A stretch of 44,573 nucleotides of DNA from an archaeon (GCA_016191585.1 JACPVU010000018.1:1-44573); one strand, 5' to 3'. Counted from the first letter of the stretch, positions 9,205 through 34,708 are shown. Translations and numbers: made by a program. The notes: generated by a model not told the origin, from the letters alone.

Positions 9205-9249
9205 CTTTATATAGTATTAATCACTAATAGATAGTAACAGATTGTAGGT
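9205..9249 (+). promoter_or_regulatory. promoter/leader module, copy 1 (TATA box CTTTATATA plus a conserved 35-nt leader)
   Basis: 'CTTTATATAGTATTAATCACTAATAGATAGTAACA' is identical to 13996-14030. The next 10 nt differ at 2 positions. It ends at a GGTG SD-like motif just before the ATG at 9256. Confidence 0.65.
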
Positions 9250-13870: not shown

Positions 13871-13995
13871 AATTGTTATTTGTAGCGAGCATTTTTATAA
13901 GCGATTTTATTTTCTTTATAAGCTTTTGATTTGGTATCAGTTTGATATAATTGTTGAACAGCTGATTCTGTGCTTTCTGCGTCGCTGAAATAAAT

Positions 13996-14040
13996 CTTTA
14001 TATAGTATTAATCACTAATAGATAGTAACAAATTGTGGGT
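13996..14040 (+). promoter_or_regulatory. promoter/leader module, copy 2
   Basis: 35 nt identical to 9205-9239, then 8 of 10 nt identical. It lies upstream of the ATG at 14048. Confidence 0.65.
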
Positions 14041-18302: not shown

Positions 18303-18794
18303 ATGGCTTTTGACCCGACTCTAGGAAATCCGTTTGCGACTCTAGGCATAGACTTCTATGGATTCTTCCTTCCGTGGATATTCACGTTCGCGATCGTATA
18401 CGGACTGCTTGCCAAGCTGAACCTGTTCGGCGGCAAAAACGACAAAATATCAATGGCACTTGCATTTGTTATCGCATTCTTCGTATCAGCAGTAGGCGGA
18501 CCGCAGCTCGCAACATTCTTTACGAGCATATTCGGCGGAGCTGCAATGTTCCTTGCGGGCATACTCGTAATAATACTTTTCGCGGCGCTGCTCGGGCACA
18601 CGGACTTCAAGCACATGGGCGCACTGGTAATAGTCGTGATCATAGGAATATTCCTGTTCCTGTCATCAAGCAACCAGTTCATTTCAGTGAGCGTGATAGG
18701 CCCTGACGTTGCCAGCCTTATATTCTGGATTGTAATCATAATCGTGGCAATATACTTCGTGACACACGAGAAGAAAGATGAGCAACATCATTAA
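18303..18794 (+). CDS. 4-TM membrane protein (paralog family member C)
   Basis: 163 aa. 'FYGFFLPWIFTFAIVYGLLAK ... FFVSAVGGPQLATFFTSIFGGAAMFLAGILVIILF' aligns residue by residue with member D. A GGTGA SD motif is present. Confidence 0.75.
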   Translation: MAFDPTLGNPFATLGIDFYGFFLPWIFTFAIVYGLLAKLNLFGGKNDKISMALAFVIAFFVSAVGGPQLATFFTSIFGGAAMFLAGILVIILFAALLGHTDFKHMGALVIVVIIGIFLFLSSSNQFISVSVIGPDVASLIFWIVIIIVAIYFVTHEKKDEQHH

Positions 18795-19430: not shown

Positions 19431-19907
19431 GTGCGAAAAATGGCTGATCCGTTCACGATATTAGTTGCTAACCTGAATGGTCTTGGATTCTTTGGGTTTC
19501 TGCTTCCGTTCATATTCGTATTTGTTGTCGTATACGGGCTTCTGATCAAGACGAAATTTTTTGAGGACCAGAAGATAATAGGTGTTTTGTCGTTAGTTCT
19601 TGCGTTCTTTGTTATAGGCTACGGAGGTCCGATGCTTGCAAATTTCTTTGTTAACCTGTTTGGATTGGCTGCGGTGATAATAGCAGGCATACTCGTAATC
19701 GTGCTGTTTATTGCAATGACTGGCGGCGATATAAGCAAGATAGCAAGCGGCAAGTCAGTAGCAGCAGCTCTTGCAGGAATAGGAATAATAGTATTTTTCA
19801 TAGCACTCGGCGCTCTCGGCGTGGCAATCAATGATTCCGTGATAGGAATAATCTTTGTTATAGTAATCCTGGCGCTGGCTGTCTTATTCATAACAGGGTC
19901 TAATTAG
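19431..19907 (+). CDS. 4-TM membrane protein (paralog family member D)
   Basis: 'FFGFLLPFIFVFVVVYGLLIK ... FFVIGYGGPMLANFFVNLFGLAAVIIAGILVIVLF'. The likely start is the ATG at 19440, preceded by AAGGTG. Confidence 0.75.
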   Translation: MRKMADPFTILVANLNGLGFFGFLLPFIFVFVVVYGLLIKTKFFEDQKIIGVLSLVLAFFVIGYGGPMLANFFVNLFGLAAVIIAGILVIVLFIAMTGGDISKIASGKSVAAALAGIGIIVFFIALGALGVAINDSVIGIIFVIVILALAVLFITGSN

Positions 19908-19989: not shown

Positions 19990-20634
19990 TCAGGCCTCTT
20001 CTTCGAGTTCAAGCCGCCCCGACTTTTCCTTTATCTCGTGTATCATCTGCGACAGGGCTTCTATGTTTCTGGTCAGCGACGGCAGGAACTGCTTGAAAGC
20101 CTTCTCAAGTCCGCCGACTCTTGCGTCTAAATCCTCAAGGCTATTAGTGATGTCATTGACCTTGAATTCTATCTCTTTGGAAGATGTGTCGCGCGGCTGG
20201 GCAAGTACAGAACCATACTGTTTAAGCTGGGCGTTTATGTGTTCCAGGGAGTCTTCTATCTTTGTTATTCTGTCCTCAAACTTGGCCCATTTCTCTTCGA
20301 CTATGCCCTCGATAAGCTCCTCGATTATAAGATCGCTCTGGTCACTTTCCATTTCCTGCGGAGCTTCTTCCTCGAAAGTAGGAAGTTCAAATGCCTGCTG
20401 CGGCTGCTGCTGTGAAAATTCTTCTGGCATATATGACTGCTGGTTGTTTGACACAGCTTCTGGTTCGACGCCATCCTTGACAGTTTCCAGCATTGCCTTT
20501 TCTATGTCCTTATAGGAATAGCCTTTGTGCTTGAGGTCCTTTATTATATCTTTGTCGCTCATGCCCTTCCTTGTCATTGCCTTTACGTCATCCATAGGAA
20601 GCGGCTTCTGTTCTTTCTTTTTTCCAAAAAGCAT
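19990..20634 (-). CDS. coiled-coil protein with an N-terminal three-helix (UBA/PEX14-N-like) motif and a Q/E-rich linker
   Basis: 'KGMSDKDIIKDLKHKGYSYKDIEKAM', then an acidic/Q-rich region, then heptad-rich 'ITKIEDSLEHINAQLKQ...LEDLDARVGGLEKAFKQFLPSL'. Confidence 0.6.
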   Translation of the reverse strand: MLFGKKKEQKPLPMDDVKAMTRKGMSDKDIIKDLKHKGYSYKDIEKAMLETVKDGVEPEAVSNNQQSYMPEEFSQQQPQQAFELPTFEEEAPQEMESDQSDLIIEELIEGIVEEKWAKFEDRITKIEDSLEHINAQLKQYGSVLAQPRDTSSKEIEFKVNDITNSLEDLDARVGGLEKAFKQFLPSLTRNIEALSQMIHEIKEKSGRLELEEEA

Positions 20635-20694: not shown

Positions 20695-21072
20695 TCAGGA
20701 AACGCGGACTTCCCTGATGTCTTCGCTCTTTTCCTCGCTGACAGGGCTTATGAGGTCTATCATGTGCTCCATTTCCTTCAGGTCGCGTTTCTGCACGAAC
20801 TTGACGAGCTGCTTGTTCAGTTTTTCAATGGCCATCTTGATGTTTATTATGTCGTTTTCCACTGTCCTCAGAGAAACGTCTGTCTCGGCGAATTTTGTGT
20901 TGGTTTTCTTTGTACGCTCTGACGTTCCCTGAATCAGGATGTTTACCTTGTCTTCTATTGCGTCCATCCTCTGCTCTAACGATCGCAGTCTTCTTACTTC
21001 TTCGTTGCTTCTCCTTACAAGCTCCTGAAGAATTACCTGATAGTTTTCAGTCTGCGCAGCCATAAAAATCAC
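20695..21072 (-). CDS. small coiled-coil protein
   Basis: 125 aa (121 aa from the likely ATG at 21060), helical and heptad-like throughout, ending '...KEMEHMIDLISPV'. It is co-directional with and immediately upstream of 19990..20634. Confidence 0.55.
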   Translation of the reverse strand: MIFMAAQTENYQVILQELVRRSNEEVRRLRSLEQRMDAIEDKVNILIQGTSERTKKTNTKFAETDVSLRTVENDIINIKMAIEKLNKQLVKFVQKRDLKEMEHMIDLISPVSEEKSEDIREVRVS

Positions 21073-21162: not shown

Positions 21163-21253
21163 ATGATCATCTGCGTGAAGGGTATCGTCTATCGATGATA
21201 CCCTTAGCTAGAGCTACTATCAAAGAGATAGTAGCTCTCACGCAGATGATCAT
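21163..21253. repeat. perfect nested inverted repeats (Y-shaped: 16-bp closing stem plus 8-bp and 12-bp hairpins), function unknown
   Basis: ATGATCATCTGCGTGA (21163-21178) pairs with TCACGCAGATGATCAT (21238-21253). Inside are AGGGTATC/GATACCCT and AGAGCTACTATC/GATAGTAGCTCT. No stem has a mismatch. Confidence 0.85.
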
Positions 21254-21448
21254 CATACGTTAAGTTAATACAATCTAATGTGATCCAAATAAAGAATCGG
21301 GATATATAAATTTGGATCACGGTATAGCGCACAAGGAAATTATATACCGTTTATTTCCTTGTAGCACTATAAACCAGCCATTTATTTTAACACGACTATG
21401 AACGTTAGTAAAAATTAATAGTTAGCACAGCAATATGTTACCAGTAAT

Positions 21449-24400
21449 GTGATGCCAATGACTTATGAATACGAATACGACGAGCAGAACCAGAAGATAA
21501 GGATAAACTGCCTCGGCGCTGTACAGGGTTCTAACATAGAGGATTTTCCTGTCTGCATGGCAAAGACGATAGACAACTTGATGGAACTGAAAAAGGTCGC
21601 AAAGATCGTTCTTGTCGACGTACGTGAGTATGAATATGACGTGAGCGAAGCAAGAATGCTGCTTGAGATAGCAAACGCCATTGAGTACATAATAAAGGAA
21701 AAGCTCGTCAGCATGGAAAATATTGTCCTGCCTGGCTGTGAAATGGAATCGCCGGAAAGGTATTCATTTCTGCAGAGATTTCTCAACGACATAAAATACG
21801 ATCCTATCGACGCCTACAAAAAACTCATCCGTGAAATGAGAAAGCAGAAGGTCCGCAGCGAGAGGGAAACTGGCATCGCGAAGGATTGTCATCTTCACTA
21901 CATAAACAATTCACTTATACCGATAAAAACCGCGCTGGATAAATGCAAGATGATACAGCTGGCTGTTCCGCAGCTGGCAGAACACAAGAACCGCTCGCTG
22001 TACAGAAAAATATTTCATCCGACAATAAGGCCGAATTTCATCTATACAAAATACGTATCGCTCCCGCCTCCGCATTCCGAGCTTATTGAAAGATATACTG
22101 TCGGGGAAATGAACGTTGAAATATACAGCGTGCCTGGACAGGTCAGAAAATTCTATCTGGCTATACCGCCTGAGTTCAAGCTCAACGAGACAGAATACAC
22201 GCTGCTGGATACGGCCAGAAGGTATATAGGCCACCACGAGCCGAGGGAAATAGAACTGGCCGAGCCGGAAAGGATAAGAGAAAATCTCTTTAGAATAGGT
22301 GTTGACATAATACGCGACCTTGCTTCGTCACAAAACTATGCAATTTCTGAGTCGAGGATCGAGAAGCTTTCGAAGATACTTGCACGTTACACAGCAGGAC
22401 TTGGCGTGATTGATTTAATACTGCAGGATGAAAACATACAGGACATCGTGATAAACGCGCCTATAGGGTCGTCGCCTGCGTTCATCTTTCACGCAAACCA
22501 CGAGGAATGCGAGACAAATATTGTACCGAGCATAGAAGACGCAGAAACGTGGGCAACGAGATTCCGACTATATTCAGGGCGTCCGTTAGATGAGGCCAAC
22601 CCTGTACTGGATACAGAATTGATAGTGCCAGGAGGCAGGGCTCGTGTCGCTGCTGTAACAAGGACATTGTCGCCTGACGGGCTGGCATTTGCTTTCCGCA
22701 GGCACAGGGACAAGCCGTGGACTTTCCCGCTTTTCATAAAAACGAAGATGATAGACCCGCTCGCAGCAGGGCTTATGTGGTTCCTTATTGACGGTGCAAG
22801 GACCCTGCTCATTGCCGGTACAAGGTCGAGTGGAAAATCCTCATTCTTGGGTGCGTGCATGGTGCAACTGATGCCGAAAATAAGGATAATCAGTACTGAG
22901 GACAGCGTTGCGGGTGATTGTGAAATATTCTATGAGAATCACGGAAAAATAGAAAAATCCACTGTAGGCAATCTTATAGACAGCACCATAGAGAAATATG
23001 GTTGTGACCATGACTTTGACCGGGAGGTTGCCAAGAAAAATCCTGAAAATATAAGGGTATTTTCCATGGACAATAAAGGCAAAATAAAACTATCTAACGT
23101 AAGTTCTTTCATAAGACATAAAACAAAAAAGGACTTATTTGAAATAACTACGCGAACAGGAAGAAAAATAAAGGTAACAGGAGACCACTCTTTGTTTCAT
23201 CTGAATAAAGAAGGAAAAATAGCACCGGTCAAATGCTGCGACCTGAAAATAAATGATTACCTTGCAGTTCCGAGGATTTTGCCGTTTGAAAACAGTCTGG
23301 TCGAATCGCTAGATATTCTTGACTATATAGAAAATGATAAGGATGTTTACCTGCAAGGCGATGGTGTCAGGGATTTTGTAAGACATAACAGGAACGAAAT
23401 AAGGAAACTGGGGTCAAAATCGAATCTGGAGCACTGGACACGCGGCATATTGCCACTGAAAATCACCAGAAAAATAAATTCTCAGCATGGGCTGGAAAAA
23501 GACGTGCAGATAAAATTCGGGAAACATGCCAGACCTTTGCCACGTATAATAATACTCGACAAAGAAATGCTTGAGTTCTTCGGCTTGTGGCTCGCTGACG
23601 GATGTTACGATAAGAATGAAGTCATAATATCCGTAGTTGACGAAGATTCGAGAAATGTTGTGAGAAATATTGCCGCATATCTTGAAATAAAAGTTACCAT
23701 GCATACAGACGGCATATCACTGATACTGCACTCACGTACGCTTAAGCATATGATGAAATGCCTCGGATTTGACGGAAATGCATATACAAAAGAAATTCCA
23801 AAATGGGTCTTCAATCTGTCAAAGAATCAGATAGCACACTTCATGAGGGGCATCTTCAGCGGTGACGGATACCTCACGAACAACGAAGCTGCCATAAATC
23901 TTGTCTCTCAAGGCATGATAAAAGATATCCAGACAATGCTTCTCATGTTTGGCATTACGAGCAGAATAAACAGGATAGGAAAAGATATGACATATTCCTG
24001 CAGGATAAGCCAGCTTGATTCCATAAGAAAATTCGCTTCCATAGGATTTCTCCAGCAATGGAGATTTCAAAAGCTTTCTGAGATGTGCAAAAAAATCTCC
24101 ACCCACGACTCCCCGGATATCGTGCCTTTTTCGAAGGAATTCAAGCTAAAAATACGGGAATCCTATGAAAGTTTTAACTATCACGACTACATTGTTCGCG
24201 GCAATAACATAGGAAGAAACAAATTATTGACAATGACAAAGTCCGTGAATGCACCATCATTAGCTGAAAACCTTTGCCTACTTGCCGAATCGGACATATT
24301 CTGGGATCAGATACGGGAAATAAGACGCATGGAAAACCCTGAAGAATGGGTTTATGATTTTTCTGTGCCTGAATGCGAGAATTTTGTATGTGAAAACATA

Positions 24401-25198
24401 ATTGCTCACAATACACTGGAACTGCCTTTCGACCAGCTGCGCGAGTTGGGATACAACATAGAAAGGCTGAAGTCGCGGTCAGTAATTACGCACGTCGAAA
24501 CAGAGCTGCCAGCAGAAGAGGCGCTGAGAACAGCTCTGCGATTAGGTGACAGCGCGCTGATTGTAGGTGAAATAAGAAGCAAGGAAGCGCTTGCGCTGTA
24601 TGAAGCCATGAGAATAGGCGCCCTGGCTAATATGGTAGCAGGAACAATACACGGAGATTCTGCATACGGAGTTTTTGACCGTGTGGTGAACGACCTTGGC
24701 GTGACTCCGACAAGCTTCAAGGCAACTGACATTGTTCTTGTTGCGAACATGCTGCGTTCGCCTGAAGGCCTGCACGCTTTCAGAAGGGTCGTCGAGATAA
24801 CAGAAGTCAGAAAACACTGGAAGCACGACCCAGCAGAAGAAAACGGCTTCGTTAACTTGTTCGAATATTCTGCAAGGGAAGACATACTCAAGCCGAGCAA
24901 GACGCTCCTGATGGGGGAATCGCAGGTGCTCAATGATATATCGATGCGTATCCGCGAATGGAAGGGAAACTGGAACGCTGTATGGAACAACATACGATTA
25001 AGGTCAAGGATATTGCAGGCAATTGTAGATTATTCTGTCATAAAGAACAGACCTGGTCTTTTGGAAGCTGATTTCGTAGTTGCGTCTAATTCTATGTTCC
25101 ATATAATCAGCTCTGAAGTAAAGGAAGAAGTAGGGGACTTTGACAACGAAGAAATTTTCGAGCGCTGGAACACGTGGATGAAGAAGCAGACGCAGTAA
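21449..25198 (+). CDS. type IV pilus/archaellum-class (FlaI/PilB/VirB11-like) secretion ATPase, interrupted by an intein
   Basis: Walker A 'AGTRSSGKSS'. 'RIISTED|...|TLELPF' restores the conserved IEDT.EL box after intein removal. Walker B 'ALIVGEIR' and His box 'GTIHGDS' are present. The spliced size is about 746 aa. Confidence 0.9.
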   Translation: MMPMTYEYEYDEQNQKIRINCLGAVQGSNIEDFPVCMAKTIDNLMELKKVAKIVLVDVREYEYDVSEARMLLEIANAIEYIIKEKLVSMENIVLPGCEMESPERYSFLQRFLNDIKYDPIDAYKKLIREMRKQKVRSERETGIAKDCHLHYINNSLIPIKTALDKCKMIQLAVPQLAEHKNRSLYRKIFHPTIRPNFIYTKYVSLPPPHSELIERYTVGEMNVEIYSVPGQVRKFYLAIPPEFKLNETEYTLLDTARRYIGHHEPREIELAEPERIRENLFRIGVDIIRDLASSQNYAISESRIEKLSKILARYTAGLGVIDLILQDENIQDIVINAPIGSSPAFIFHANHEECETNIVPSIEDAETWATRFRLYSGRPLDEANPVLDTELIVPGGRARVAAVTRTLSPDGLAFAFRRHRDKPWTFPLFIKTKMIDPLAAGLMWFLIDGARTLLIAGTRSSGKSSFLGACMVQLMPKIRIISTEDSVAGDCEIFYENHGKIEKSTVGNLIDSTIEKYGCDHDFDREVAKKNPENIRVFSMDNKGKIKLSNVSSFIRHKTKKDLFEITTRTGRKIKVTGDHSLFHLNKEGKIAPVKCCDLKINDYLAVPRILPFENSLVESLDILDYIENDKDVYLQGDGVRDFVRHNRNEIRKLGSKSNLEHWTRGILPLKITRKINSQHGLEKDVQIKFGKHARPLPRIIILDKEMLEFFGLWLADGCYDKNEVIISVVDEDSRNVVRNIAAYLEIKVTMHTDGISLILHSRTLKHMMKCLGFDGNAYTKEIPKWVFNLSKNQIAHFMRGIFSGDGYLTNNEAAINLVSQGMIKDIQTMLLMFGITSRINRIGKDMTYSCRISQLDSIRKFASIGFLQQWRFQKLSEMCKKISTHDSPDIVPFSKEFKLKIRESYESFNYHDYIVRGNNIGRNKLLTMTKSVNAPSLAENLCLLAESDIFWDQIREIRRMENPEEWVYDFSVPECENFVCENIIAHNTLELPFDQLRELGYNIERLKSRSVITHVETELPAEEALRTALRLGDSALIVGEIRSKEALALYEAMRIGALANMVAGTIHGDSAYGVFDRVVNDLGVTPTSFKATDIVLVANMLRSPEGLHAFRRVVEITEVRKHWKHDPAEENGFVNLFEYSAREDILKPSKTLLMGESQVLNDISMRIREWKGNWNAVWNNIRLRSRILQAIVDYSVIKNRPGLLEADFVVASNSMFHIISSEVKEEVGDFDNEEIFERWNTWMKKQTQ
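22904..24412 (+). mobile_element. 503-aa intein with a LAGLIDADG homing-endonuclease domain
   Basis: It starts 'SVAGDCEIF' (block A, Ser1), has block B 'VTGDHSLF', LAGLIDADG motifs 'FGLWLADGCY' (about 23580-23610) and 'RGIFSGDGYL' (about 23845-23875), and ends 'VYDFSV...ENIIAHN' followed by the +1 Thr. Confidence 0.9.
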
Positions 25199-25420
25199 TT
25201 CGTATACAAATATTCGAGAATTAGAGTATTGGTTTGGAAAAAGTTATTGTTGAACGCCACATATTTTTTGAAGAATGGTCGTCATGATTTTTTATTCATA
25301 TAATTTTTGAATTCCATTAAATCTATATAAAGTTAGTTGAATATTCTACGCATTCAATTGAACGAGTTGACGAGATTCATCCTGCATCCAGAATCGCAAA
25401 CACTATGTCGTCTTGCCGGC

Positions 25421-27376
25421 TTACGCTGATGTTACAGACGATATCAGCGGGCCGAACATTGTCAGCGTCATCAGAAGCGATACGGTAAACACGACGAAGC
25501 CGATGATGAGTGTGTAGCCTGTCACGTTTGCCCTTCCTATCGGGTCTTCCCCGTTTTCTATGGTGTTTATGAACATCGATATGATGAAAGACGATTCTAT
25601 CATGTAGATCGCAACGACGAAGATGAACTGGAACGGCGATATGGGTATCTGGCTGAATTCCGAGATCATCGGTATGCTCGTGCCAAGCGCAGGTGCCTGG
25701 TCTCCTAGCTGTTTCAGTATCCGGATTATGATTATTGCAAGCGTTGCCACTGTGCCGGATATCATCGGTGTCAGGAAGAATCCCTGGAACTTTAGCGAGC
25801 CGACAACCTCATTCAGCGAGTCCCTGACTTCTTCCTGGGTTGTATGCAAATTTTTGAGATACTTGGATATCGAGAGCATGCTGTTTGACGCGACAACAAT
25901 TCCCTTCTTTGATGATTCTACAACTGTTCGCATTACAGATTTTATCAGTTTTGACGGATAGTAGCGGACAGCTCCGTATTTCTCCTCGAAAAAAGCCTGC
26001 TGGAAAGTGAATCCGAGGAGTTTCATGTTGTTTATTGCCTTTGAAAACAGTTCCTTTATCTTCAGGGTCTTTATCCTTGCGAGCGTGTTTTCCATTGCCA
26101 TTTCTATTGGCCTTCCGCTTGATACCTGGTTGCCTAACTGGAACAAAGCTTCTGCAAACTCGCCCTCGATCTGCATTGTCTCGCTGCGGAGCTTCATCTT
26201 CTGGCTCGACGTGAGTATGAAATACAGCGCAAATCCCAGGGCAAGTCCAAAAGTTATGACGATTGCAGGTGTTATTCCCTCGAAGTTTTTGCTGTCTATA
26301 GATTCATTAGAATAAAGAAACAGACCAAACAAAATAATTAAAATGCCGATTATTGCTGCAATAGGCCACGCCCTGACGAATTTTTTCTTGAACCTGAACC
26401 TGCCTTTTGGCGGGACATTGGGGTTCTCGCTTATGTCGACGTTGCTGAACGTTGCGGGCCGGACAGAAAGTATGTTCATGATTATGAAGTACAGCATGAA
26501 AGGCAGAATTATGTCGTATCCTATAAAGAGTACGACCGCGTTGACGTGCAGGAAAACAGCTATTATAGGGAACAGCACGAGCCCCATGACAGGCAGGATT
26601 ATTCCAAGTGCGTGGACAACTGTAACAGGCAGTCTCAAACTCTGGTTGAAATGCTTTGCATCTTCCCTGTTGCCTTCAAGGATGATATTCACTGCTTCCT
26701 CTAACATATTTAATCTCTTTTCGCCGACCTGCTTCATCGACGATGTCATCAGCTGGACTGACTCAACGAAATGGCGGTTAGCGGACCATTTCTTTGTATA
26801 ATCAGTCAGGGCTTCTTCCATGGAGAGATAGTTGCCGACCTCTACGTCCCAGAGCATCTTCTTGAGCTCGTAGCCTATGCTGCCTGTTATGTTCTCGGCA
26901 GCGAACTTGACAGCGCCTTCCAGGCTTGGGTTGTTCCTCATGTAGATTACTGAATACAGGATGAAAGTCACTATGTCAGAACCAACCATCATCGTGTAGG
27001 TCGTTTTCAGTTTTATCGGGTAATAGTAGATGTAGTAAGTCAGTATCATGCCTATCAGAAGGAGCAGCATTCCGTATCCGAAGAAGCCTAAGAACACCAG
27101 CAGAAAAGTCGGTATGAGAACCATTATCAAAAACAAGAACGTGAATGAGACGATGCCTGTAGGTGTAGCCTTCAGGTGCGTGAAATCTATCGCGTCCTGA
27201 AGTCTTTTTCCGGATTTCTTGTCCGGCTTCACCCTGATTATCTTCTCGGAGAAATTGCAGGCTTTTTCGTAGACGGTTATCGGCAAAGACGTGAGCCGCT
27301 CTTCTTCTAGAAATATCTTGTACTCCCTGGAAATGAGCTTCTTTATCTCGGCTGTCCGCTTTTTTTTGTCCATCAA
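25421..27376 (-). CDS. polytopic FlaJ/TadC/PilC-like pilus platform membrane protein
   Basis: 651 aa. The alternation of cytoplasmic helical domains and TM bundles is typical of the T2SS-F/FlaJ family. It lies adjacent to the secretion ATPase. Confidence 0.75.
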   Translation of the reverse strand: MMDKKKRTAEIKKLISREYKIFLEEERLTSLPITVYEKACNFSEKIIRVKPDKKSGKRLQDAIDFTHLKATPTGIVSFTFLFLIMVLIPTFLLVFLGFFGYGMLLLLIGMILTYYIYYYPIKLKTTYTMMVGSDIVTFILYSVIYMRNNPSLEGAVKFAAENITGSIGYELKKMLWDVEVGNYLSMEEALTDYTKKWSANRHFVESVQLMTSSMKQVGEKRLNMLEEAVNIILEGNREDAKHFNQSLRLPVTVVHALGIILPVMGLVLFPIIAVFLHVNAVVLFIGYDIILPFMLYFIIMNILSVRPATFSNVDISENPNVPPKGRFRFKKKFVRAWPIAAIIGILIILFGLFLYSNESIDSKNFEGITPAIVITFGLALGFALYFILTSSQKMKLRSETMQIEGEFAEALFQLGNQVSSGRPIEMAMENTLARIKTLKIKELFSKAINNMKLLGFTFQQAFFEEKYGAVRYYPSKLIKSVMRTVVESSKKGIVVASNSMLSISKYLKNLHTTQEEVRDSLNEVVGSLKFQGFFLTPMISGTVATLAIIIIRILKQLGDQAPALGTSIPMISEFSQIPISPFQFIFVVAIYMIESSFIISMFINTIENGEDPIGRANVTGYTLIIGFVVFTVSLLMTLTMFGPLISSVTSA

Positions 27377-27672
27377 TACTAATTGTCACGCCTCTTAAAT
27401 AATGTTTTTTCCTGAGGTAATGTGGATGTAATTGTATGTTCAGTTAATTTTGGAACATGTTATGCTGAACATACAGTATAGCGGGTTCAAAATAAAAGTT
27501 CCGATATTATTCGAACCCACTATAAGCGATCTAGATGTTAGTCGGTTGTTATTTTCATGTGTCTGCAGGTGTCTATAGCAATGTCAGAAACGGCAAACAC
27601 TCTGTCGATTCTATTTCAATTGTCAATATTGTCATACTCATACGAAATTTCGTGATTTTATGATACGACTTT

Positions 27673-27855
27673 GATTGAATTCCATATTCGTATAATGATA
27701 GTCAACGTAGACATATACCTCATAGAACTTTGTTCTGTGGGGTCTTGGAAAGCTTTGCTTTCCAAAGACATCAAGGGACGTATATGTCAGCCAGGAGCGT
27801 TATCAAAAATATAATGCTCCTCACGTCGACTATCATATTTTAATGGAATTCAATC
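27673..27855. repeat. 183-nt multi-tier inverted-repeat element with 3 internal hairpins, function unknown
   Basis: Tiers: GATTGAATTCCAT/ATGGAATTCAATC (13 bp), ATGATAGTCAACGT/ACGTCGACTATCAT (14 bp, 1 mismatch) and GACATATAC/GTATATGTC (9 bp). Inner hairpins: AGAAC/GTTCT, GTCTTGGAAAGC/GCTTTCCAAAGAC and AGGAGCGTTAT/ATAATGCTCCT. Confidence 0.85.
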
Positions 27856-27861
27856 TACTAC

Positions 27862-27869
27862 TTTAAAAA
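27862..27869 (+). promoter_or_regulatory. candidate TATA box (TTTAAAAA) of the pilin-like operon
   Basis: It lies 29-36 nt upstream of the ATG at 27898, which has no SD motif, consistent with a leaderless transcript. It also directly follows the 3' arm of the structured element. Confidence 0.35.
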
Positions 27870-27897
27870 TCGGGGGCCACATATACTATTGATAACT

Positions 27898-28053
27898 ATG
27901 GACGAGATGTGGCTGATAATAATGATGTTCTTCATGGTGCTCATATTCGTGTTCATGGTGGCTGTAACTCAGGGATGGATAGATATCGCAAAGCCGCAGA
28001 TAGCCATAGGCGCTGCTATCCTTGTTAAGAATAAAAGAACCAGGAAGCGATGA
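27898..28053 (+). CDS. 51-aa single-TM mini-protein with a polybasic C-terminus (below the ORF-track cutoff)
   Basis: Translates to MDEMWLIIMMFFMVLIFVFMVAVTQGWIDIAKPQIAIGAAILVKNKRTRKR. The stop lies 1 nt before the next ATG. Confidence 0.5.
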   Translation: MDEMWLIIMMFFMVLIFVFMVAVTQGWIDIAKPQIAIGAAILVKNKRTRKR

Positions 28054-28054
28054 A

Positions 28055-28201
28055 ATGGATTTGAGAAAGAATCTGCTGACAACGGTTGTGATTATACTGC
28101 TGATATTAGTTATATTGTTCGCGCTGTGGGAATCTATGACAGGAGATGCGCCTAAAACAGTGTCCCAGTTTTTCATGGATCTGACAAGAGGCCTTGGATA
28201 G
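28055..28201 (+). CDS. 48-aa Flp-sized TM mini-protein (family member 1; below the ORF-track cutoff)
   Basis: Translates to MDLRKNLLTTVVIILLILVILFALWESMTGDAPKTVSQFFMDLTRGLG. It is tightly coupled to both flanking ORFs. Confidence 0.55.
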   Translation: MDLRKNLLTTVVIILLILVILFALWESMTGDAPKTVSQFFMDLTRGLG

Positions 28202-28202
28202 T

Positions 28203-28379
28203 ATGACTGAGAAAAAAGGAATCGTGATAACAACAGAGATGCTTGTAACGATCATATTCATAATAGTCGCAGCTCTAATACTGTTCTTTTTCTGGGCGTC
28301 GTTCTCCAGTGAAGCAGGCGGGCCTGTCAGCAGCCTGTTTTACAAGTTCATGGATTTCCTGACAGGATTCATGTCGTAG
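28203..28379 (+). CDS. 58-aa pilin-like mini-protein (family member 2) with a class-III-like 'KKG' leader
   Basis: Translates to MTEKKG|IVITTEMLVTIIFIIVAALILFFFW...LFYKFMDFLTGFMS. The track ORF 28194..28379 starts at a TTG, and the ATG at 28203 is preferred. Confidence 0.6.
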   Translation: MTEKKGIVITTEMLVTIIFIIVAALILFFFWASFSSEAGGPVSSLFYKFMDFLTGFMS

Positions 28380-28387
28380 GTGTTTTC

Positions 28388-29326
28388 ATGCCCGAAGAAA
28401 ACGTGATAGTCGTCATCATAGTGATGTTCATCGTACTTGCAATAGTCGTTGCGACATTCGGGATGTCAAATCCTTTCAAGACTGTCTACGGAACTTTTTC
28501 ACAAACAAGGGAAATGATAACCATAACCAGGGTTTCTGCTGATCCAGTCGCATACGACGCAGGCAATGGCAAGTATACTATAGCTACAGCACTGCTGTTT
28601 CATGTTGATCCTGATCCTGACGACAAATCAGATACAGTAAATCGCGGTATAATACCTCTCATTAGTTTCAAGAATTCGTACGCAAAATCTGAAACTATAT
28701 TCTTAACAAGCGGAGAAGATGACTACGACAAACCAAGTGTCAAGTTTGAAATAGTGAGCAGTTCACCGCCTATCGAAAACCCGAAAACCATGACCGGCGC
28801 TGAATTTCCGCCGATTGAAGAATATGACAAATGGATTCATAATGAAAGAAAAATCGAGAGAGACCATACTTACTTGTTTGAGGATGGCGATGAAAACAGG
28901 TATCTAATTTCATTGTCAGAACTGGAAATAAAAGGCAACATACTTGGATTTTCCAAGACTTGCAGGGCAAGGTTTAGGATGGAATGCAAAAACGACCTGA
29001 AGCAGTCGGAAGAGGTTGAAGGATGCAATATAGACGAGAAAGAATGCACCGACACAACCGTATTCAGGAACTGCAACGACGGCACTGTCACGATAAAAGC
29101 CAACAGCCTTTATTGCATTGCCGGATACGCAGACGTCACAGTAACGACAAAGGACGGGATGAAGTGGAGTGACATGGGCGAGACAGCTGTCGTAAGCCTT
29201 TTCAGGAACAGCGACTGCGTAAATACAGAGCTGCAGCGGGCTCTTGCAAACGGCATTAAGATACTGAACGAGAACTGCCCTAACGATTTCTTGGCTAGCA
29301 AGAAAATAACATTGAAAATATCGTGA
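28388..29326 (+). CDS. secreted or anchored Cys-containing protein with an N-terminal hydrophobic helix (pilus-associated candidate)
   Basis: N-terminus 'MPEENVIVVIIVMFIVLAIVVATFG'. 312 aa, 9 Cys in the C-terminal half. An AGGTG SD-like motif lies upstream. Confidence 0.6.
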   Translation: MPEENVIVVIIVMFIVLAIVVATFGMSNPFKTVYGTFSQTREMITITRVSADPVAYDAGNGKYTIATALLFHVDPDPDDKSDTVNRGIIPLISFKNSYAKSETIFLTSGEDDYDKPSVKFEIVSSSPPIENPKTMTGAEFPPIEEYDKWIHNERKIERDHTYLFEDGDENRYLISLSELEIKGNILGFSKTCRARFRMECKNDLKQSEEVEGCNIDEKECTDTTVFRNCNDGTVTIKANSLYCIAGYADVTVTTKDGMKWSDMGETAVVSLFRNSDCVNTELQRALANGIKILNENCPNDFLASKKITLKIS

Positions 29327-29383
29327 AAGCATTTTTCTGCTTTTAAAAAGTTTCAATGAATATACAATAACTAGGTTAAAACA

Positions 29384-30136
29384 ATGAAGCTTAAACCACG
29401 GCATGCCCTCATCCCGATACTTGTGTTTCCTGTCTTATTTTGTATATATATGTATACGGCTGAAAAACTCGAAGAAAGACGACAGCATCAGAAATATCAG
29501 GCATACAGAAACGCTGAAAACGACGTTCAGATATATCTCGATGACGTAAAAAACGGCGAGGGATGGAAGATCGACAGCATTTCTTCCGTACTAAACAGCA
29601 GGAGTTATTGCGGTATAACCTATTCAAAAGCCGTAGACGCGCTTGTCAGGACGCGAAGCCCGAAAGCGTATGAACCGCTCCTAAAAGTCGCTGGGGGCGC
29701 AAATCCTTATACATACAGTGAAGTCACTTATAAATTCGATGATGGGTCAACAGACGTTTACGATCCTAATACTGTAGCGATAAAATGGCTTGCAAGAACC
29801 AGCGGAAAGAAGGCGCTGAAACACTTTGTCAGAGAATTCGAAAAAGACCAGCCATACTCAAACCCGTACGTGATCTCGCGCTTTATTCTTGAAGGTGTCA
29901 ATCCAGGAGAGGAAAAAGACGATGTTATTGCAGCCATTTCAAAACCACTCCTTCAGCGCCCTACAAGGTGTGATGAAATAATTTATGCTGACGCGCTGAG
30001 AAAAGTCGATAACAAAGCCGCTGAAATCGTGGCAAAGGAAATCGATAGCTGGAAATTTTTTTATATTAATGATAACTTCTACTACCGAAATAATGACTGC
30101 GCGAAAGATATAACAGCCACACTAATCGGGCAATAG
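29384..30136 (+). CDS. N-terminally anchored protein, possibly HEAT-repeat-like
   Basis: Signal-anchor 'ALIPILVFPVLFCIYMY'. Repeated helical segments 'AVDALVRTRSPKAYEPLLKV', 'AIKWLARTSGKKALKHFV' and 'ADALRKVDNKAAEIV' are a weak HEAT-like pattern. Confidence 0.45.
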   Translation: MKLKPRHALIPILVFPVLFCIYMYTAEKLEERRQHQKYQAYRNAENDVQIYLDDVKNGEGWKIDSISSVLNSRSYCGITYSKAVDALVRTRSPKAYEPLLKVAGGANPYTYSEVTYKFDDGSTDVYDPNTVAIKWLARTSGKKALKHFVREFEKDQPYSNPYVISRFILEGVNPGEEKDDVIAAISKPLLQRPTRCDEIIYADALRKVDNKAAEIVAKEIDSWKFFYINDNFYYRNNDCAKDITATLIGQ

Positions 30137-30545
30137 CTTTACAAAAAACACAACTGGCTATTTTCTTTGTTCATAAATGACGCTTAGTCAATTACTGCCC
30201 ATAAATTGAATGAACGCATTAAGACGAGCATCAATCTTTCGTTGCTTTTTTGGCCCAATTCTGCAAAAATATCAGGTTCATGTTTAGTTGTCGAAATTCA
30301 TCTCATAGCTGAATCCAGAAGCGTTCTTTCGATACCTATAACGCATTTATTTAGCCCGGAACAATATGATATATAGCATCTGACATAAATATTCAGACAT
30401 ATTATGATGTCAGTGCTATATACAGAGACATTATTTTTGTACGAAAAATAATGTCATCTGTTATAGTAAGGCAATCAGAATCCCGTTGTATGAATTGCAT
30501 ATAGCAATAAAATAATGCCGGGGTTGTCTTATTGCTGTACTAGAA

Positions 30546-31403
30546 GTGATAGAATTGAAAGGGTCTATAGAATTTTCGCAGGGCGCTGTGCTGTACATAA
30601 TACTCATGCTTTTAGTCATTTTCATAGGGCTTATGATTGTGACCAAGGGACAGCTCCTGCTGGTATTTGAGCAGGACTCGCTTTCAAAGATGTTCGGACC
30701 TTCGCAGTTTCAGATGACAACCACTGTCAACGGAAAGGAGCAATCACTGTCTGAAAAAAATGTGCAGATCGAATGCATTAACTGGAATCTTAACTGGAAT
30801 CTGAAAATCAACAACGTTGGGTTCAGATATACAGGTGGCGGCAAGGACAACCTTAAATTCATAGTCGTGCTGGACCTGAACAAAGTCATGAGGGTAGGAC
30901 ATGACATCAGTTCAAACTTTTTATTTACGTGCACAAAACAGGGGGAAGGCACAAGCGCCAAATACGAATGCGGCGAGTCAAAAGAAATAATATTTGATTC
31001 TGTGCAGGCCGGCGGAGTTCTCCACTTCACTGCGTGGAAAGACGACGAAAATGCAGAGATTGCCAATAAGATCGCACCTAATCCTGACTATACGTTTGGC
31101 GATCTCGTAGACGAATACTCACAGAACTATATGGGTTCTTATGACCTGTCTGGTTTGACAGCATTCGAGGCGTGTCTCGGAGACATATGCAAAAAAATCA
31201 AAGATGGAGATGCTTGTATGAATACGAAGATAAAAAACAACGACAATAACGATATTGGATGCTGGTTCCAGTCAGGTAATTGCTATGCCTGCAAAACAGT
31301 TACGAAGTGCGGTGATTTTAAAAGCAGTGCTGAATGCAAACAGTGCAGCACTTACAACAACCTGAACTGTGGTTGGATATCGAATCAGTGCAAAAATGGG
31401 TGA
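30546..31403 (+). CDS. archaeal type IV pilin-like protein (class III signal peptide) with a Cys-rich C-terminal module
   Basis: 'MIELKG|SIEFSQGAVLYIILMLLVIFIGL' fits the archaeal prepilin pattern (K-G then x-S-x-E-F plus a hydrophobic helix). It has 14 Cys, 11 of them in the last 85 aa or so. Confidence 0.65.
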   Translation: MIELKGSIEFSQGAVLYIILMLLVIFIGLMIVTKGQLLLVFEQDSLSKMFGPSQFQMTTTVNGKEQSLSEKNVQIECINWNLNWNLKINNVGFRYTGGGKDNLKFIVVLDLNKVMRVGHDISSNFLFTCTKQGEGTSAKYECGESKEIIFDSVQAGGVLHFTAWKDDENAEIANKIAPNPDYTFGDLVDEYSQNYMGSYDLSGLTAFEACLGDICKKIKDGDACMNTKIKNNDNNDIGCWFQSGNCYACKTVTKCGDFKSSAECKQCSTYNNLNCGWISNQCKNG

Positions 31404-31408
31404 TACAT

Positions 31409-31543
31409 ATGGCAGATATATGGAGAGAGGTTTTGTGGATAATATTATTACTGATAGCACTTGGCGCTATTACATCGATAGCCGCTTTCATGAGCGGCGG
31501 CTCTTTCAAGGTTCTTGAGAACGTTCTGGGATTTTTGAGGTGA
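31409..31543 (+). CDS. 44-aa TM mini-protein (family member 3)
   Basis: Translates to MADIWREVLWIILLLIALGAITSIAAFMSGGSFKVLENVLGFLR. A GGGTGA SD motif lies 5 nt upstream. The track ORF 31334..31543 overlaps the previous gene, so the ATG at 31409 is preferred. Confidence 0.6.
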   Translation: MADIWREVLWIILLLIALGAITSIAAFMSGGSFKVLENVLGFLR

Positions 31544-31547
31544 TAAA

Positions 31548-31673
31548 ATGAGGTTGGAATATGTCGTAGTCGGTTTCATACTGGTGATGATTGTGCTTCT
31601 CATAGCGATCTCCATGCTGAATGGAGCTGTACCTGGAATCTTTGATGTCATAAAACTGATATCTGGCCAGTAA
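31548..31673 (+). CDS. 41-aa TM mini-protein (family member 4; below the ORF-track cutoff)
   Basis: Translates to MRLEYVVVGFILVMIVLLIAISMLNGAVPGIFDVIKLISGQ. A GAGGTGA SD motif lies 4 nt upstream. Confidence 0.6.
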   Translation: MRLEYVVVGFILVMIVLLIAISMLNGAVPGIFDVIKLISGQ

Positions 31674-31708
31674 ATGATGGAATTAACTACGGGACAAAAG
31701 GTGTAAGA

Positions 31709-33322
31709 ATGACAGATTCGATAGAAGAGGTAATATTTCCCGCAATCGGCTTAGTTTTCCTTCTTCTCGGGATAGTGCTGTTGGCGTCGATACTGTTTTC
31801 TGCTTTCAATCCATATGACCAGATAGCTTTCATCAACGCAGAAAAACTGAGGGCAAAGATAGACGAGGCGTGCATGACTAATAATGTAATGACAACTAAC
31901 AGTATCGAGCTCAGGCAGAATACGCCCTCGTTCACGTGGGCATTCAGCATACTGCCCAGGTGGTTGATACGTTCAGGCGGCGATCCTAATTATGTTTTAT
32001 ATTATGAAGCTTTTCCTCCAGGCGAAGCAACAGGCTGGGAAGTCTATCATGACATGCAGGCCAGAATAATAACACCTGTAACTGATGATTTCTTGAAAAG
32101 TCAACCAACACAATATGCCGGACAGTCTGTAATGGAATATGTGAAAGAAAAAGTGGAAAAAGCATATACAGGCAGCGACAAGATTGACTCTATAATCATA
32201 AGCAACATAGTTCTCAGCGAAGATTTCAGGGCAGACTACAGAATTGACAAAAAAGAATTGGAAAAATTCACTAGTGGTGGAGGTTCATTTGGTGGAGCTG
32301 GTGCGTCTACTTCGTGGAAGGGCGGGCCTGTTGAAGAGGCAAAGAAATCAGAGGAAAAATTCTTCTCGTACGGAAAATGGAGGGACCAAGATAAAGACAC
32401 GAAAATTCCCCTAACAGGTGCTGACAACGTATTTATGTTTTCAAACTACATGAGTCTCAGCCCGTCAGAAAAAACAGCCATAAAGTACATGCCTTGTGGT
32501 GTGAATTCACTGTGCCTAAAAACGAGAAGCGGCATATACTCGTTTCCGTTGCATCAGTGCAATGTTAAAGGCGTGCCAATAATAAATGATATTTTAATCG
32601 ATTACAATGGTGGTGGTGATGTTCCTCTTGGTAAAAAACTTCTCAACAATGTCAAGTCTGCCTTAGGCGGTCTTCTTATTTGGATAACGAAAGGTACGAG
32701 TCCTGGAGCCGATTTGGCTGGTGGTGGTTTGATTGCATCCGCTATCAGCGACTCATTGGTGAACAGCCTTCAATACAAACTAAGTGAGTTTTATATTGTC
32801 AGCCCGTGCACGATATCTGACAAACAACAGCTCAATAAAATAACGATACAGAAAAAAGAGTGCAAAGACGTATGTGAGAGCTACATATCGTATCCTATTT
32901 ATAGCTACGATTCAAAAAATCAAAAACTCAATCCTACTAATAATAATCACTTTGTATGCACAAGGTCGATTGGAAATACGATAAATAATCCGCCCGACAA
33001 TCTGATGCCCGGACAGTGCATAGTAGTAAGTATTGCAGCGAAAAAAAGCGATTATTGCTGGACACCGCAACCTAAAGACACAGGGTTGATTAGCAATTTA
33101 TGGAATTCTGTCAAACAACTTTATCCACCTGGCGTAGTTGCTTCTGCTGTCTTGAATATAGGTTATGGTTATCCCATTACCGGAAACACGGCATTTATTG
33201 CGCCTAATCAAAATTTAGATACCGACAATATGATAATTCTGAAACCAACCCAAACAGCACTTAAGGAAGGTGAGGGATTTTTCGAGAGCTTGGACAGAAA
33301 ACTGTTCTGGGGCTGGCCATGA
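31709..33322 (+). CDS. large secreted or anchored Cys-containing protein with a pilin-like N-terminus (pilus tip/adhesin candidate)
   Basis: 'MTD SIEEVIFPAIGLVFLLLGIVLLASILF' recalls the SIEF motif of 30546. 537 aa, Gly-rich linker 'SGGGSFGGAGAS', about 13 Cys. An AAAGGTG SD-like motif lies upstream. Confidence 0.6.
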   Translation: MTDSIEEVIFPAIGLVFLLLGIVLLASILFSAFNPYDQIAFINAEKLRAKIDEACMTNNVMTTNSIELRQNTPSFTWAFSILPRWLIRSGGDPNYVLYYEAFPPGEATGWEVYHDMQARIITPVTDDFLKSQPTQYAGQSVMEYVKEKVEKAYTGSDKIDSIIISNIVLSEDFRADYRIDKKELEKFTSGGGSFGGAGASTSWKGGPVEEAKKSEEKFFSYGKWRDQDKDTKIPLTGADNVFMFSNYMSLSPSEKTAIKYMPCGVNSLCLKTRSGIYSFPLHQCNVKGVPIINDILIDYNGGGDVPLGKKLLNNVKSALGGLLIWITKGTSPGADLAGGGLIASAISDSLVNSLQYKLSEFYIVSPCTISDKQQLNKITIQKKECKDVCESYISYPIYSYDSKNQKLNPTNNNHFVCTRSIGNTINNPPDNLMPGQCIVVSIAAKKSDYCWTPQPKDTGLISNLWNSVKQLYPPGVVASAVLNIGYGYPITGNTAFIAPNQNLDTDNMIILKPTQTALKEGEGFFESLDRKLFWGWP

Positions 33323-33376: not shown

Positions 33377-34164
33377 TTAGAGTTTTATTATATCGTATAC
33401 GACGATTACTTCCCATAAACGTATGATGAAATGTGTTAATAAAACGTCTTTTTCGTCGTTGTATTCGGTAATCACATGTCTTGTGTGAATTCTTCCCGAA
33501 TCTATGTTTCTGAATCTTGGAAACCAGTGTTTTATCCGCCATGTATTTTCTATGTCGTTGTTGTTGTGTTCCTTGAAGCTGATAAATTTGTCGTGTTTTA
33601 CTTCTGGACCAAATACTTCGAAAATTGCTCTCCTGTACGCAGGTAATCCATCTGTTCGTATAATTTTCGGCCAATAGCCAGGAGGAAAACGCCTTCTAGC
33701 TTCCCAAAACAGAAATTTAGCGTCTTGTAAAGTCCGTGTTTTCGATAAGTGTGATGCCACAACTTTCTTCGTTTTTATGCACTTCACTCCCCACAACCAT
33801 GCTTTTTCGCCATTGAAAAGCTCTATCTGTGTTTCGTCTGTTTCCAGCAGTTCTCCAAGACCACGAATTACTTCTCTGTCATCTTTGGCGAATCTTCTGC
33901 ACCATCTGCCTATGGAAGAGATAGATTTTACGACGATATTAAACGCATTTGACACTACTTTTCTGGTCTTTTTCAGGGTAAGACCTTCGTGCCTTATCTC
34001 GACAGCGCTATAGACCTGATTTTTTGGAAATCTCATTCTTTTCCAATCTGTGTCGATAGACTGCCGACCACAACCCCGACACAAAAATTTTGTACAATAC
34101 CCCTGTTTTTTAACTCCCTCTTACCATTCTTTATCATGGCAAGGCCACAATTTGGACATTTCAT
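33377..34164 (-). pseudogene. IS6-family-like DDE transposase, frameshifted between the N-terminal Zn finger and the catalytic core
   Basis: The core ORF 33377..34084 carries 'TDETQIEL', 'IIRTDGLPAYRRAI' and 'NNNDIENTWRIKHW' (a D-D-E pattern). The upstream ATG at 34164 encodes 'MKCPNCGLAMIKNGKRELKNRGIVQNF' in another frame. The two join only if 2 nt are skipped near 34083-34090 ('...QNF-CRGCGRQ'). Confidence 0.7.
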
Positions 34165-34198
34165 AGATTTATCACCTATGAATTCCTGTGGCTTTGCC

Positions 34199-34708
34199 TT
34201 ATAAATCATACGTTAATGGAATTCTATCCGGTGTTGCTATCAGGATCTCCTTACCGGTTTCTAACAGTATTTTTTGGACAGTATCGGTAGATTCTCCGTG
34301 GTCAAAAATATCGTCAATTATAATTGCTTCGTCGTGTTGTTTCAGATGCTCTATTGCCTGCTCGACGTCAACGCTATCCACTTTTGGTTTGCCTGCAACG
34401 CCTATTCCACCAGTGCCGTACCTGCTTATTTTTATCGGAACGTAGTCTATTTCCTCGCCTTCTCTTGTGCACAATACTTTCCTAAAACCACCGCTCACGT
34501 ACAAAAATATCTGGCTGCCGCCGCGCATGAGCGGGAGAAGAAGGGGCTTTTTCTCTTTGTATTTTTCTTCGCGGTCATTAAGTATTTTTTTTGTAAGTTC
34601 ATAGGAATGTGCGGCTATTCTGAACGGTGTCACGGGCTCAAGGTAGAAGCCGTCTTTGATAAGTATACCATCCCTTTCTTTCCATGTCATACCATAAGAA
34701 TAAACCAA
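34199..34708 (-). CDS. phosphoribosyltransferase (purine PRT-like)
   Basis: PRPP-binding loop 'AIIIDDIFDHGESTDTV'. 169 aa. Confidence 0.75.
   Translation of the reverse strand: MVYSYGMTWKERDGILIKDGFYLEPVTPFRIAAHSYELTKKILNDREEKYKEKKPLLLPLMRGGSQIFLYVSGGFRKVLCTREGEEIDYVPIKISRYGTGGIGVAGKPKVDSVDVEQAIEHLKQHDEAIIIDDIFDHGESTDTVQKILLETGKEILIATPDRIPLTYDL

Follow-up and report, generated by a model that had tools for sequence, protein, structure and literature searches.

Which machine is encoded between positions 21449 and 33322 of the archaeal contig GCA_016191585.1 JACPVU010000018.1:1-44573, where the genes of a secretion-type ATPase and of a polytopic platform protein are followed by a series of genes for helix-anchored proteins (g1 to g9)? 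The whole stretch of 44,573 nucleotides (nt) is called the window here. The initial annotation had seen in the region a divergent type IV pilus-like locus, neither an archaellum nor one of the described Aap, Ups or Epd loci, which is supported by the family of the ATPase, by its FlaI score and by the conserved synteny. We consider it quite probable that the region is the proximal two-thirds of an Aenigmatarchaeota-specific machine of the type IV filament (TFF) class, rearranged around ends resembling those of an IS6-family insertion sequence (IS).

The ATPase, the platform and their synteny in Aenigmatarchaeota

The window was compared with 12 related loci. Eight were found by a platform-protein search of a genome collection (5 from Candidatus Aenigmatarchaeota and 3 labelled "uncultured archaeon"), and four (L009 to L012) come from contigs encoding g9 homologues. 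The platform protein shows 36 to 69% identity to the proteins of 11 other loci, and those with a taxon name all belong to Aenigmatarchaeota. The family of g9 comprises 52 close members and, at 50% identity, 238 representative clusters (E <= 0.001); its members with a taxon name are all Aenigmatarchaeota, the remainder having no name or being called "archaeon". The source organism is an aenigmatarchaeote, a tiny-genome archaeon of the DPANN group.

ATPase and platform genes are adjacent and lie on the same strand in all nine related loci that have both. In 7 of these 9, detectable orthologues follow in a fixed order: two or three mini-protein genes, g4, g6, g7, g8 and g9. Two more loci (L009 and L010) start at the platform gene, and their downstream order matches that of the other relatives. 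In the two most divergent loci (L006 and L007), the downstream genes have no detectable homology to g1-g9. The synteny on which the initial annotation had staked its reading is kept wherever downstream DNA is present and detectable, so the loss of synteny that would have refuted that reading was not observed. The full locus, of about 15 genes, is conserved across the phylum; in the window it is present only in part and in rearranged form.

Some loci have peculiarities of their own. In the clade of L006 and L007, other Cys-rich proteins with a KKG/ leader (cleavage sites are marked by a slash throughout) replace the g-genes, including a GLUG-motif protein (L007:16880-18322). In L011, a staphylococcal-nuclease (SNase) gene (7042-7479, - strand) separates the platform gene from those of the mini-proteins. 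L012 (9213-16921) is a naturally split locus containing only a g6-like gene, g7, g8, g9 and five distal genes (d1 to d5, described below), with neither ATPase nor platform gene within 9 kb upstream or 5 kb downstream.

The ATPase gene (21449..25198, + strand) encodes 1249 amino acids (aa) of the GspE/FlaI/TadA superfamily, as indicated by Pfam T2SSE and by PDB matches, and thus provides the assembly ATPase of the GspE/PilB/FlaI/TadA family that characterises TFF systems. After removal of its intein, the protein (extein) has 746 aa, of which about 220-290 form a conserved extension at the N-terminus, and its identity across nine related loci is 49 to 74% from residue 4 onward. Against PDB, the spliced extein matches Archaeoglobus GspE (afGspE, 2OAP; 1.4e-29), CpaF (3e-17) and FlaI (1e-16). 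It scores 124 bits with the NCBIfam FlaI equivalog NF058587, whose cutoff is 550, and matches the TadA-family model TIGR03819 at 2.6e-30, under its cutoff. We therefore consider it a secretion or assembly ATPase of the archaeal TFF type rather than an archaellum motor.

For the same reason, an archaellum locus serving motility is very improbable. It is true that FlaI and FlaJ belong to the same superfamilies as the ATPase and the platform, and FlaI, FlaJ and FlaG homologues have been annotated in the phylum (Li et al. 2021, PMC8407114). However, besides the low FlaI score, no match to archaellin, FlaF, FlaG, FlaH or FlaC/D/E was found in the nine products and the neighbouring open reading frames (ORFs) scanned, except for a sub-threshold FlaC_arch match (E 0.007) in a coiled-coil protein. 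In the same set, Pfam and NCBIfam agree with the initial annotation that no prepilin peptidase, archaellin or FlaF/G/H is visible.

The intein (22904..24412, + strand; ATPase residues 486-988) has 503 aa and contains a LAGLIDADG homing endonuclease. Pfam recognises both parts (Intein_splicing 3.6e-27; LAGLIDADG_3 1.2e-13), and the residues expected of an intein are present: Ser1 (S486, SVAGDCEIF), block B (TGDH), and a terminal HN followed by Thr+1 (HN/T, 987-989). The insertion point is in the Asp-box (IISTED/TLEL), just after the Walker A motif. Intein-free orthologues align seamlessly over the junction, and among the relatives only L002 has an intein. The description of the gene as an intein-split ATPase was right about the intein, the ATPase, the coordinates of the gene and the + strand, but not about a split, as this is a single contiguous gene that contains an intein. 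Solved inteins were matched in PDB, among them, weakly (2.6e-4), the KlbA intein of Methanocaldococcus jannaschii MJ0781 (2JMZ). As in KlbA-type inteins, an archaeal ATPase of the VirB11/GspE family is interrupted. Unlike KlbA, which is a mini-intein with Ala1, the window intein is large, carries the LAGLIDADG endonuclease and starts with Ser1.

The platform protein (25421..27376, - strand, 651 aa) is a polytopic member of the T2SSF/PilC/TadC/FlaJ class. Its own T2SSF match is sub-threshold (E 1e-3; 19.5 bits vs a cutoff of 25.2), and T2SSF is matched by 10 of the 11 platform orthologues, the best at 6e-7. This bears out the FlaJ/TadC-like platform gene that had been described on the strand opposite the ATPase, and gives the locus the polytopic T2SSF platform adjoining the ATPase that is typical of TFF systems.

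Helix-anchored subunits and the distal genes

Downstream of the platform gene, we count nine genes on the + strand and not ten, as had been stated. Between 30100 and 30560, a range that covers the gap at 30137-30545, no ORF of 20 aa or more has a hydrophobic helix. The tight coupling described for the whole series is likewise interrupted, with 57 nt between g4 and g5 and 409 nt between g5 and g6. The remaining description was confirmed: every product starts with a hydrophobic helix (exactly one N-terminal hydrophobic segment in each of the nine), five are mini-proteins of 41 to 58 aa, and three are large and rich in Cys.

The first three genes, the starts of which were refined to 27898, 28055 and 28203, encode mini-proteins. 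The g1 product (27898..28053, 51 aa) has one transmembrane helix and no leader. The g2 product (28055..28201, 48 aa), with a transmembrane helix and an amphipathic tail, is a paralogue of g3 (28203..28379, 58 aa), a Flp-sized pilin-like protein that has the class III-type leader MTEKKG/IVITTEM and is 64% identical to its L009 orthologue. Separate orthologues of g1 are found in L009 and L010, and a longer two-helix ORF takes its position in L001, L002, L004 and L008 (L001:12018-12281, L002:10922-11263, L004:12197-12529, L008:9225-9581). In these four loci, the ORF comprises two units, each a helix with a tail, and has an internal RKKG/ site of class III type where they meet. In L009 and in the window, each unit has a gene of its own, and in the window the two genes abut each other at 28051-28057 (TGA, one base, ATG).

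Next, g4 (28388..29326, 312 aa) has a leaderless N-terminal helix and a fast-evolving ectodomain with 8 Cys, for which no match was found in Pfam or NCBIfam and only noise by PDB sequence search. The product of g5 (29384..30136, 250 aa), which is followed by the 409-bp non-coding gap, also has an N-terminal helix and is an orphan: it has no match in Pfam, NCBIfam, PDB, the 12 related loci or a metagenome scan, and its previous label of "HEAT-like" could not be verified. A pilin-like protein with 14 Cys and the class III leader MIELKG/SIEF(SQGAV) is encoded by g6 (30546..31403, 285 aa). Two further mini-proteins follow: g7 (31409..31543, refined start, 44 aa), leaderless in the window, and g8 (31548..31673, 41 aa), with the invariant N-terminus MR[LIVM]EY in 10 of 10 orthologues. 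Finally, g9 (31709..33322, 537 aa), with 10 Cys, starts with a helix of about 55 residues that has no leader, after which comes a large alpha/beta ectodomain. Identity with orthologues is 22 to 44% for g4 and g6 where the platform reaches 56 to 69%, and g9 is better conserved.

For g9 and g6, AlphaFold2 models were obtained. The g9 model, from an alignment of 48 sequences, has a predicted local distance difference test (pLDDT) score of 81.6 and a predicted template modelling (pTM) score of 0.84; it consists of an N-terminal helix (residues 3-32 and 35-57) with a kink at a near-invariant NPY, followed by an alpha/beta domain with nine invariant Cys. The g6 model, built from five sequences only (pLDDT 79, pTM 0.71), has a helix at residues 12-50, then a beta-sandwich, and at the C-terminus a part rich in Cys. 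In both models, a long helix (about 40-55 residues) leads into a beta-rich globular domain, with no significant Foldseek match to solved pilins. We therefore suggest, from these predicted structures, that the two proteins are built like pilins, from a helix and a globular domain, and that their globular parts are unrecognisable. The claim that pilin globular domains cannot be recognised thus holds for sequence and fold libraries, although g9 and g6 are pilin-like in the models.

With regard to their N-termini, the subunits form two classes. Leaders were called by motif, as a [KR] residue and then G or A, with a hydrophobic helix of about 20 aa starting immediately after it. In every locus examined, the helix of g3, g6, d3 and d4 is preceded by such a short [KR]G/ leader, in many cases no more than MKG/; a leader is also present in d1 and d5 of most loci and in some g2 and g7 orthologues (MKG/ in g2 of L011 and in g7 of L012). 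In every locus examined g1, g4, g8, g9 and d2 are leaderless. From the two or three class III leaders proposed initially, those of g3 and g6 stand, the motif being kept in their orthologues as expected for pilin-like substrates of a TFF machine; the one assigned to g9 (MTD/SIEE) does not, since none of the 10 g9 orthologues has a leader. Most predicted mature N-termini contain an acidic residue 3 to 7 positions in, which is reminiscent of Glu5 in bacterial pilins and of EY in Flp. As a tentative reading, the subunits of the second class could be "leaderless pilins", whose translated N-termini would already resemble a processed pilin and which would bypass the prepilin peptidase.

In the relatives, g9 is followed by five more genes, none of which was found within the window: d1 (130-143 aa), d2 (305-338 aa), d3 (276-379 aa), d4 (615-872 aa) and d5 (108-115 aa). 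In L009-L012, the four loci for which genes had been called, an Alba gene comes after d5. The product of d4 combines a class III-type leader (e.g. QKKKG/AAATMM) and a conserved N-terminal module with a murein hydrolase domain. This domain was surveyed in seven loci and four database proteins, the d4 homologue search having given 5 matches. It is SLT in L009:9124-11538 (4e-15) and in L010:9248-11866 (weak precomputed match), Peptidase_M23 in L001:19156-21003 (2.6e-23), L002:17105-19369, L004:18328-20598 and L011:13816-15672, and both SLT and Peptidase_M23 in L012:14234-16558. The HxxxD and HLHF metal-binding motifs are intact in the M23-type proteins. An archaeon would not be expected to have a murein hydrolase in a pilin-like protein, and this suggests that the target is the cell wall of bacteria.

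The window itself has a stand-alone M23-like ORF of 170 aa (38512-39024, - strand), which shows 45 to 48% identity, in a stretch of about 60 aa, to the M23 domain in the relatives' d4. It has the catalytic domain only in common with d4 and contains neither a transmembrane helix nor a leader.

A complete d4 orthologue labelled "[archaeon]" (MBI3190712.1, here P0060) is encoded on a 20.7-kb contig. It has an MKMKG/ leader, canonical SLT motifs and a Cys-rich C-terminal tail that resembles the tail of g6 (E 2e-4), and its accession is 419 numbers after that of g9 of the window (MBI3190293.1, HYZ41_01165). By its sequence record, P0060 is probably located on another contig of the same metagenome-assembled genome (MAG) as the window, and it follows that the distal genes were probably relocated and not lost.

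How could these components work together? A hexameric GspE/FlaI-class ATPase, functional after intein splicing, would drive the polytopic T2SSF platform, which would pull helix-anchored subunits out of the membrane and stack them into a surface filament or a short pseudopilus. The Flp-sized mini-proteins g2, g3, g7 and g8, and possibly g1, could form the filament body, and the large disulfide-rich g4, g6 and g9, of which g4 and g6 evolve fast, would be minor or tip subunits meeting the partner cell, together with the relatives' d1-d5. We infer for the filament a function in adhesion or host attachment.

As the main rival to a long adhesive pilus, the machine could be a device for surface display or secretion, comparable to a type II secretion pseudopilus or the Sulfolobus bindosome, that anchors and presents large class III-leader proteins at the cell surface, including the relatives' murein hydrolase. 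We consider this rather unlikely, and we give still less probability to a decaying remnant or an archaellum. In its favour, most class III-leader proteins of complete loci are large and functional (g6, d3, d4) rather than small and structural, and d4 has its SLT and/or M23 domain, the latter with intact metal-binding motifs. A 2026 preprint also proposes that archaeal TFF machines commonly display functional class III-leader proteins (10.64898/2026.04.22.720090). On the other hand, a filament body would need small subunits of just the kind found here, four or five Flp-sized mini-proteins being conserved, the ATPase scores 52 bits with the NCBIfam bindosome model BasE (NF053672) against a cutoff of 1000, and genes for substrate-binding proteins or ABC transporters are not linked to the locus.

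A more specific function of the proposed filament can be put forward as a tentative possibility. It could be an attack or attachment organelle aimed at bacteria, delivering the pilin-anchored murein hydrolase d4 to their peptidoglycan wall, with most other subunits being "leaderless pilins". The archaeon itself presumably lacks a murein wall, and the catalytic domains of d4 (SLT, M23 or both) would have been swapped between lineages as in an arms race.

Rearrangement of the window copy

Three differences separate the window from all relatives: the platform gene alone is inverted, g5 is inserted, and an IS is found where d1-d5 follow g9. This IS6-family element (33402..34228, - strand) includes a transposase ORF (33377-34084; DDE_Tnp_IS240 8.7e-8, 32.8 bits vs a cutoff of 27) and a Zn-finger ORF (34033-34209). 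Its size of about 0.8 kb and its terminal inverted repeats agree with the IS6 family, the ends at about 33402 and 34228 sharing about 18 of 24 nt. These repeats were not clean with a repeat finder alone and emerged from a multi-copy alignment.

The ends of about 24 nt have the consensus GATTGAATTCCATTAACGTATGAT, and similar sequences were found at four other places in the window. One is a solo copy between the ATPase and platform genes (25305..25328, + strand), and a weaker copy lies at 21252-21275. The other two are the termini of a palindromic element of 183 bp, similar to a miniature inverted-repeat transposable element (MITE), just upstream of g1 (27673..27855); its DNA fold has -43.4 kcal/mol (z = -9.1). 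A perfect 15-bp inverted repeat (25307-25321 / 27839-27853), built of these IS-end sequences, brackets exactly the inverted platform gene. By our estimate, the chance expectation for such a repeat in this 3.2-kb region is about 0.005-0.01, and the repeat is too short for a plausible assembly artefact. The simplest account is that the platform gene was flipped by recombination, or by intramolecular transposition of the IS6 type, between the two inverted copies.

A reversible (phase-variable) switch was also considered and rejected. A scan of metagenome contigs for the outer flank joined to the repeat arm, a combination able to reveal the gene in either orientation, gave 0 matches, and exact-protein look-ups for the platform, g9 and P0060 returned no alternative assemblies. 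There is no recombinase nearby, so we prefer a fixed IS-associated inversion over a programmed switch.

At the other side of the locus, the right end of the IS encodes the last codons (DRIPLTYD) of a neighbouring ORF of 169 aa (34199-34708, - strand), a putative phosphoribosyltransferase judging from its sequence. As the IS supplies the C-terminus of this ORF, it marks a breakpoint, and the distal genes would have been separated from the locus at this IS, probably moving to another contig. The orphan g5 together with the 409 bp (29327-30545) is probably a local insertion and not part of the conserved system. The window is thus a possible case of IS6-type elements reshaping a locus through the inversion of a single essential gene and the splitting of an operon.

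These changes also raise the question of whether the window copy is a decaying, non-functional remnant disrupted by IS activity, which we find unlikely. Such decay would agree with the platform gene inverted out of the operon, the IS in the position of d1-d5, the MITE-like element in the region upstream of the operon, and the insertion of an orphan gene with 409 bp of non-coding DNA. However, the conserved ORFs are all full length, without frameshifts or premature stops, and align end to end with their orthologues. In addition, the intein retains its splicing residues, L012 is likewise split, and the d4 that probably belongs to the same genome is intact.

Several results weigh against a TFF machine in this region, or against parts of the history proposed for it. 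The products of g1-g9 have no meaningful match in Pfam or NCBIfam, and none to pilins, archaellins or FlaF/G/H; g3 and g5 have no sequence relative in PDB, and a profile of the platform family found no match there. With Foldseek against PDB, the g9 model gave no fold match (best E 0.43, template modelling score below 0.2) and the g6 model weak Ig-like matches only (E >= 0.027, none with E <= 0.001). The class III leader is found on g3 and g6 only, 7 of the 9 products of the window being without it, and the acidic N-terminal flanks of the leaderless proteins make their membrane topology uncertain. No prepilin peptidase was found among the membrane ORFs of the 44.6-kb window scanned for Peptidase_A24, the rest of the genome being outside this search. 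The similarity among IS ends is 17 to 21 of 24 nt, which alone is not significant in an all-against-all comparison of the 44 kb. The probable assignment of P0060 to the same genome is based only on accession numbering and the shared organism label. The window copy may be impaired, since its platform gene is inverted and its distal genes are detached. Even so, confident matches to unrelated, well-characterised families, which would have pointed to another kind of locus, were found for none of the nine products, and we retain the TFF machine as the best explanation.

Upstream of the ATPase, and divergent from it, two coiled-coil proteins of 214 and 125 aa are encoded (19990-20634 and 20695-21072, - strand). 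They are syntenic with the ATPase in the relatives, have generic coiled-coil matches in Pfam only, among which is the FlaC_arch match mentioned above, and are possible cytoplasmic accessory components. Further upstream, there are three paralogous multi-pass membrane proteins of about 160 aa (17744-18226, 18303-18794 and 19431-19907, + strand), with a methyltransferase ORF interrupting the series; tandem matches to the third one are present at the equivalent position in relatives. Neither these three nor the other membrane ORFs of the window that were scanned (seven in all) match Peptidase_A24; a GGD motif present in one of them is not counted here as evidence of a peptidase.

Elsewhere in the window, a composite repeat of about 100 nt (9128-9255 and 13942-14046) flanks a segment of 4.7 kb; it consists of a 67-nt direct repeat with 87% identity and a 42-nt inverted repeat with 86% complementarity. 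A membrane protein of 206 aa (43320-43940, + strand) matches the exosortase/archaeosortase family (Exosortase_EpsH 1.3e-10).

Comparison with known systems

Some of the components recall the bacterial Tad/Flp pili and the Epd pili of Methanococcus. The subunits are Flp-sized (41-58 aa) with a helix and a short tail, and the ATPase matches CpaF and the TadA-family model. The processing motif of Flp is G/XXXXEY, and the invariant EY of g8 recalls it. However, this motif is not present here: g8 (MRLEY) has no leader and no Gly, and g3 (G/IVITTEM) has its acidic residue at +6 and no Tyr. Bacterial Tad systems have two platform genes, TadB plus TadC, unlike the single fused platform of 651 aa found here. 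Two platform genes are also given for System 1, which contains Epd, in the 2026 preprint (10.64898/2026.04.22.720090). Neither a TadV nor an EppA peptidase is linked to the locus, no Peptidase_A24 being found among the membrane ORFs scanned, and the locus lacks a secretin and the remaining accessory genes of Tad systems.

Bacteria have modular pilins and lytic transglycosylases of pilus operons, e.g. BfpH and PilT of plasmid R64, and the relatives' loci likewise encode a murein hydrolase inside a pilus operon. Within DPANN, large SLT proteins are known from Woese- and Pacearchaeota (Castelle et al. 2021, PMC8204110), so murein-like lytic transglycosylases were already on record for this group. 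In contrast to these bacterial and DPANN hydrolases, the relatives' d4 is itself a pilin-like protein with a class III leader, in an organism expected to be without murein; its catalytic domain is swapped among loci, and the gene is outside the window. The 2026 census of TFF systems (Sivabalasarma & Albers, bioRxiv 10.64898/2026.04.22.720090) contains no mention of murein hydrolases or inteins, and among the papers on archaea, pilins and class III signal peptides listed by a full-text search, none mentions a peptidoglycan hydrolase.

The locus matters for the biology of the phylum, since the literature examined reports no cultivated Aenigmatarchaeota; a surface machine of about 15 genes is the most concrete molecular handle on their contact with partners. 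Of interest are a subunit family that never has a class III leader, ectodomains modelled confidently with no match in PDB, and the murein hydrolase in a pilin-like protein, which hints at bacterial rather than archaeal partners. If true, targeting of bacteria would contradict the published argument that the hosts of this phylum are archaea only (PMC8407114).

The closest known systems are the pilus islands of DPANN. In their catalogue of archaeal TFF systems, Makarova et al. 2016 (PMC4858521) were unable to assign cognate pilins to a nanoarchaeal TFF ATPase, and Castelle et al. 2021 described an Aenigmarchaeota-specific module of membrane and extracellular families without function. According to Makarova et al. 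2019 (PMC6393860, Fig. 2A), islands in some DPANN genomes contain FlaI, TadC and "dark matter" genes with signal peptides, and these genes are probably diverse pilins. As in these islands and in archaeal TFF loci generally, the genes of a secretion ATPase and of a platform of the TadC/FlaJ type precede a series of fast-evolving, helix-first genes here that cannot be annotated. Unlike them, most subunits have no class III leader, and the architecture of 14-15 genes (mini-proteins, g4, g6, g9 and d1-d5) was not found in the literature examined. This architecture, the leaderless subunits and the pilin-anchored hydrolase thus appear to be undescribed in the literature searched. Since DPANN pilus islands were published in 2019, the class of system is known, and we regard the Aenigmatarchaeota locus as an extension of it and not as a new category.

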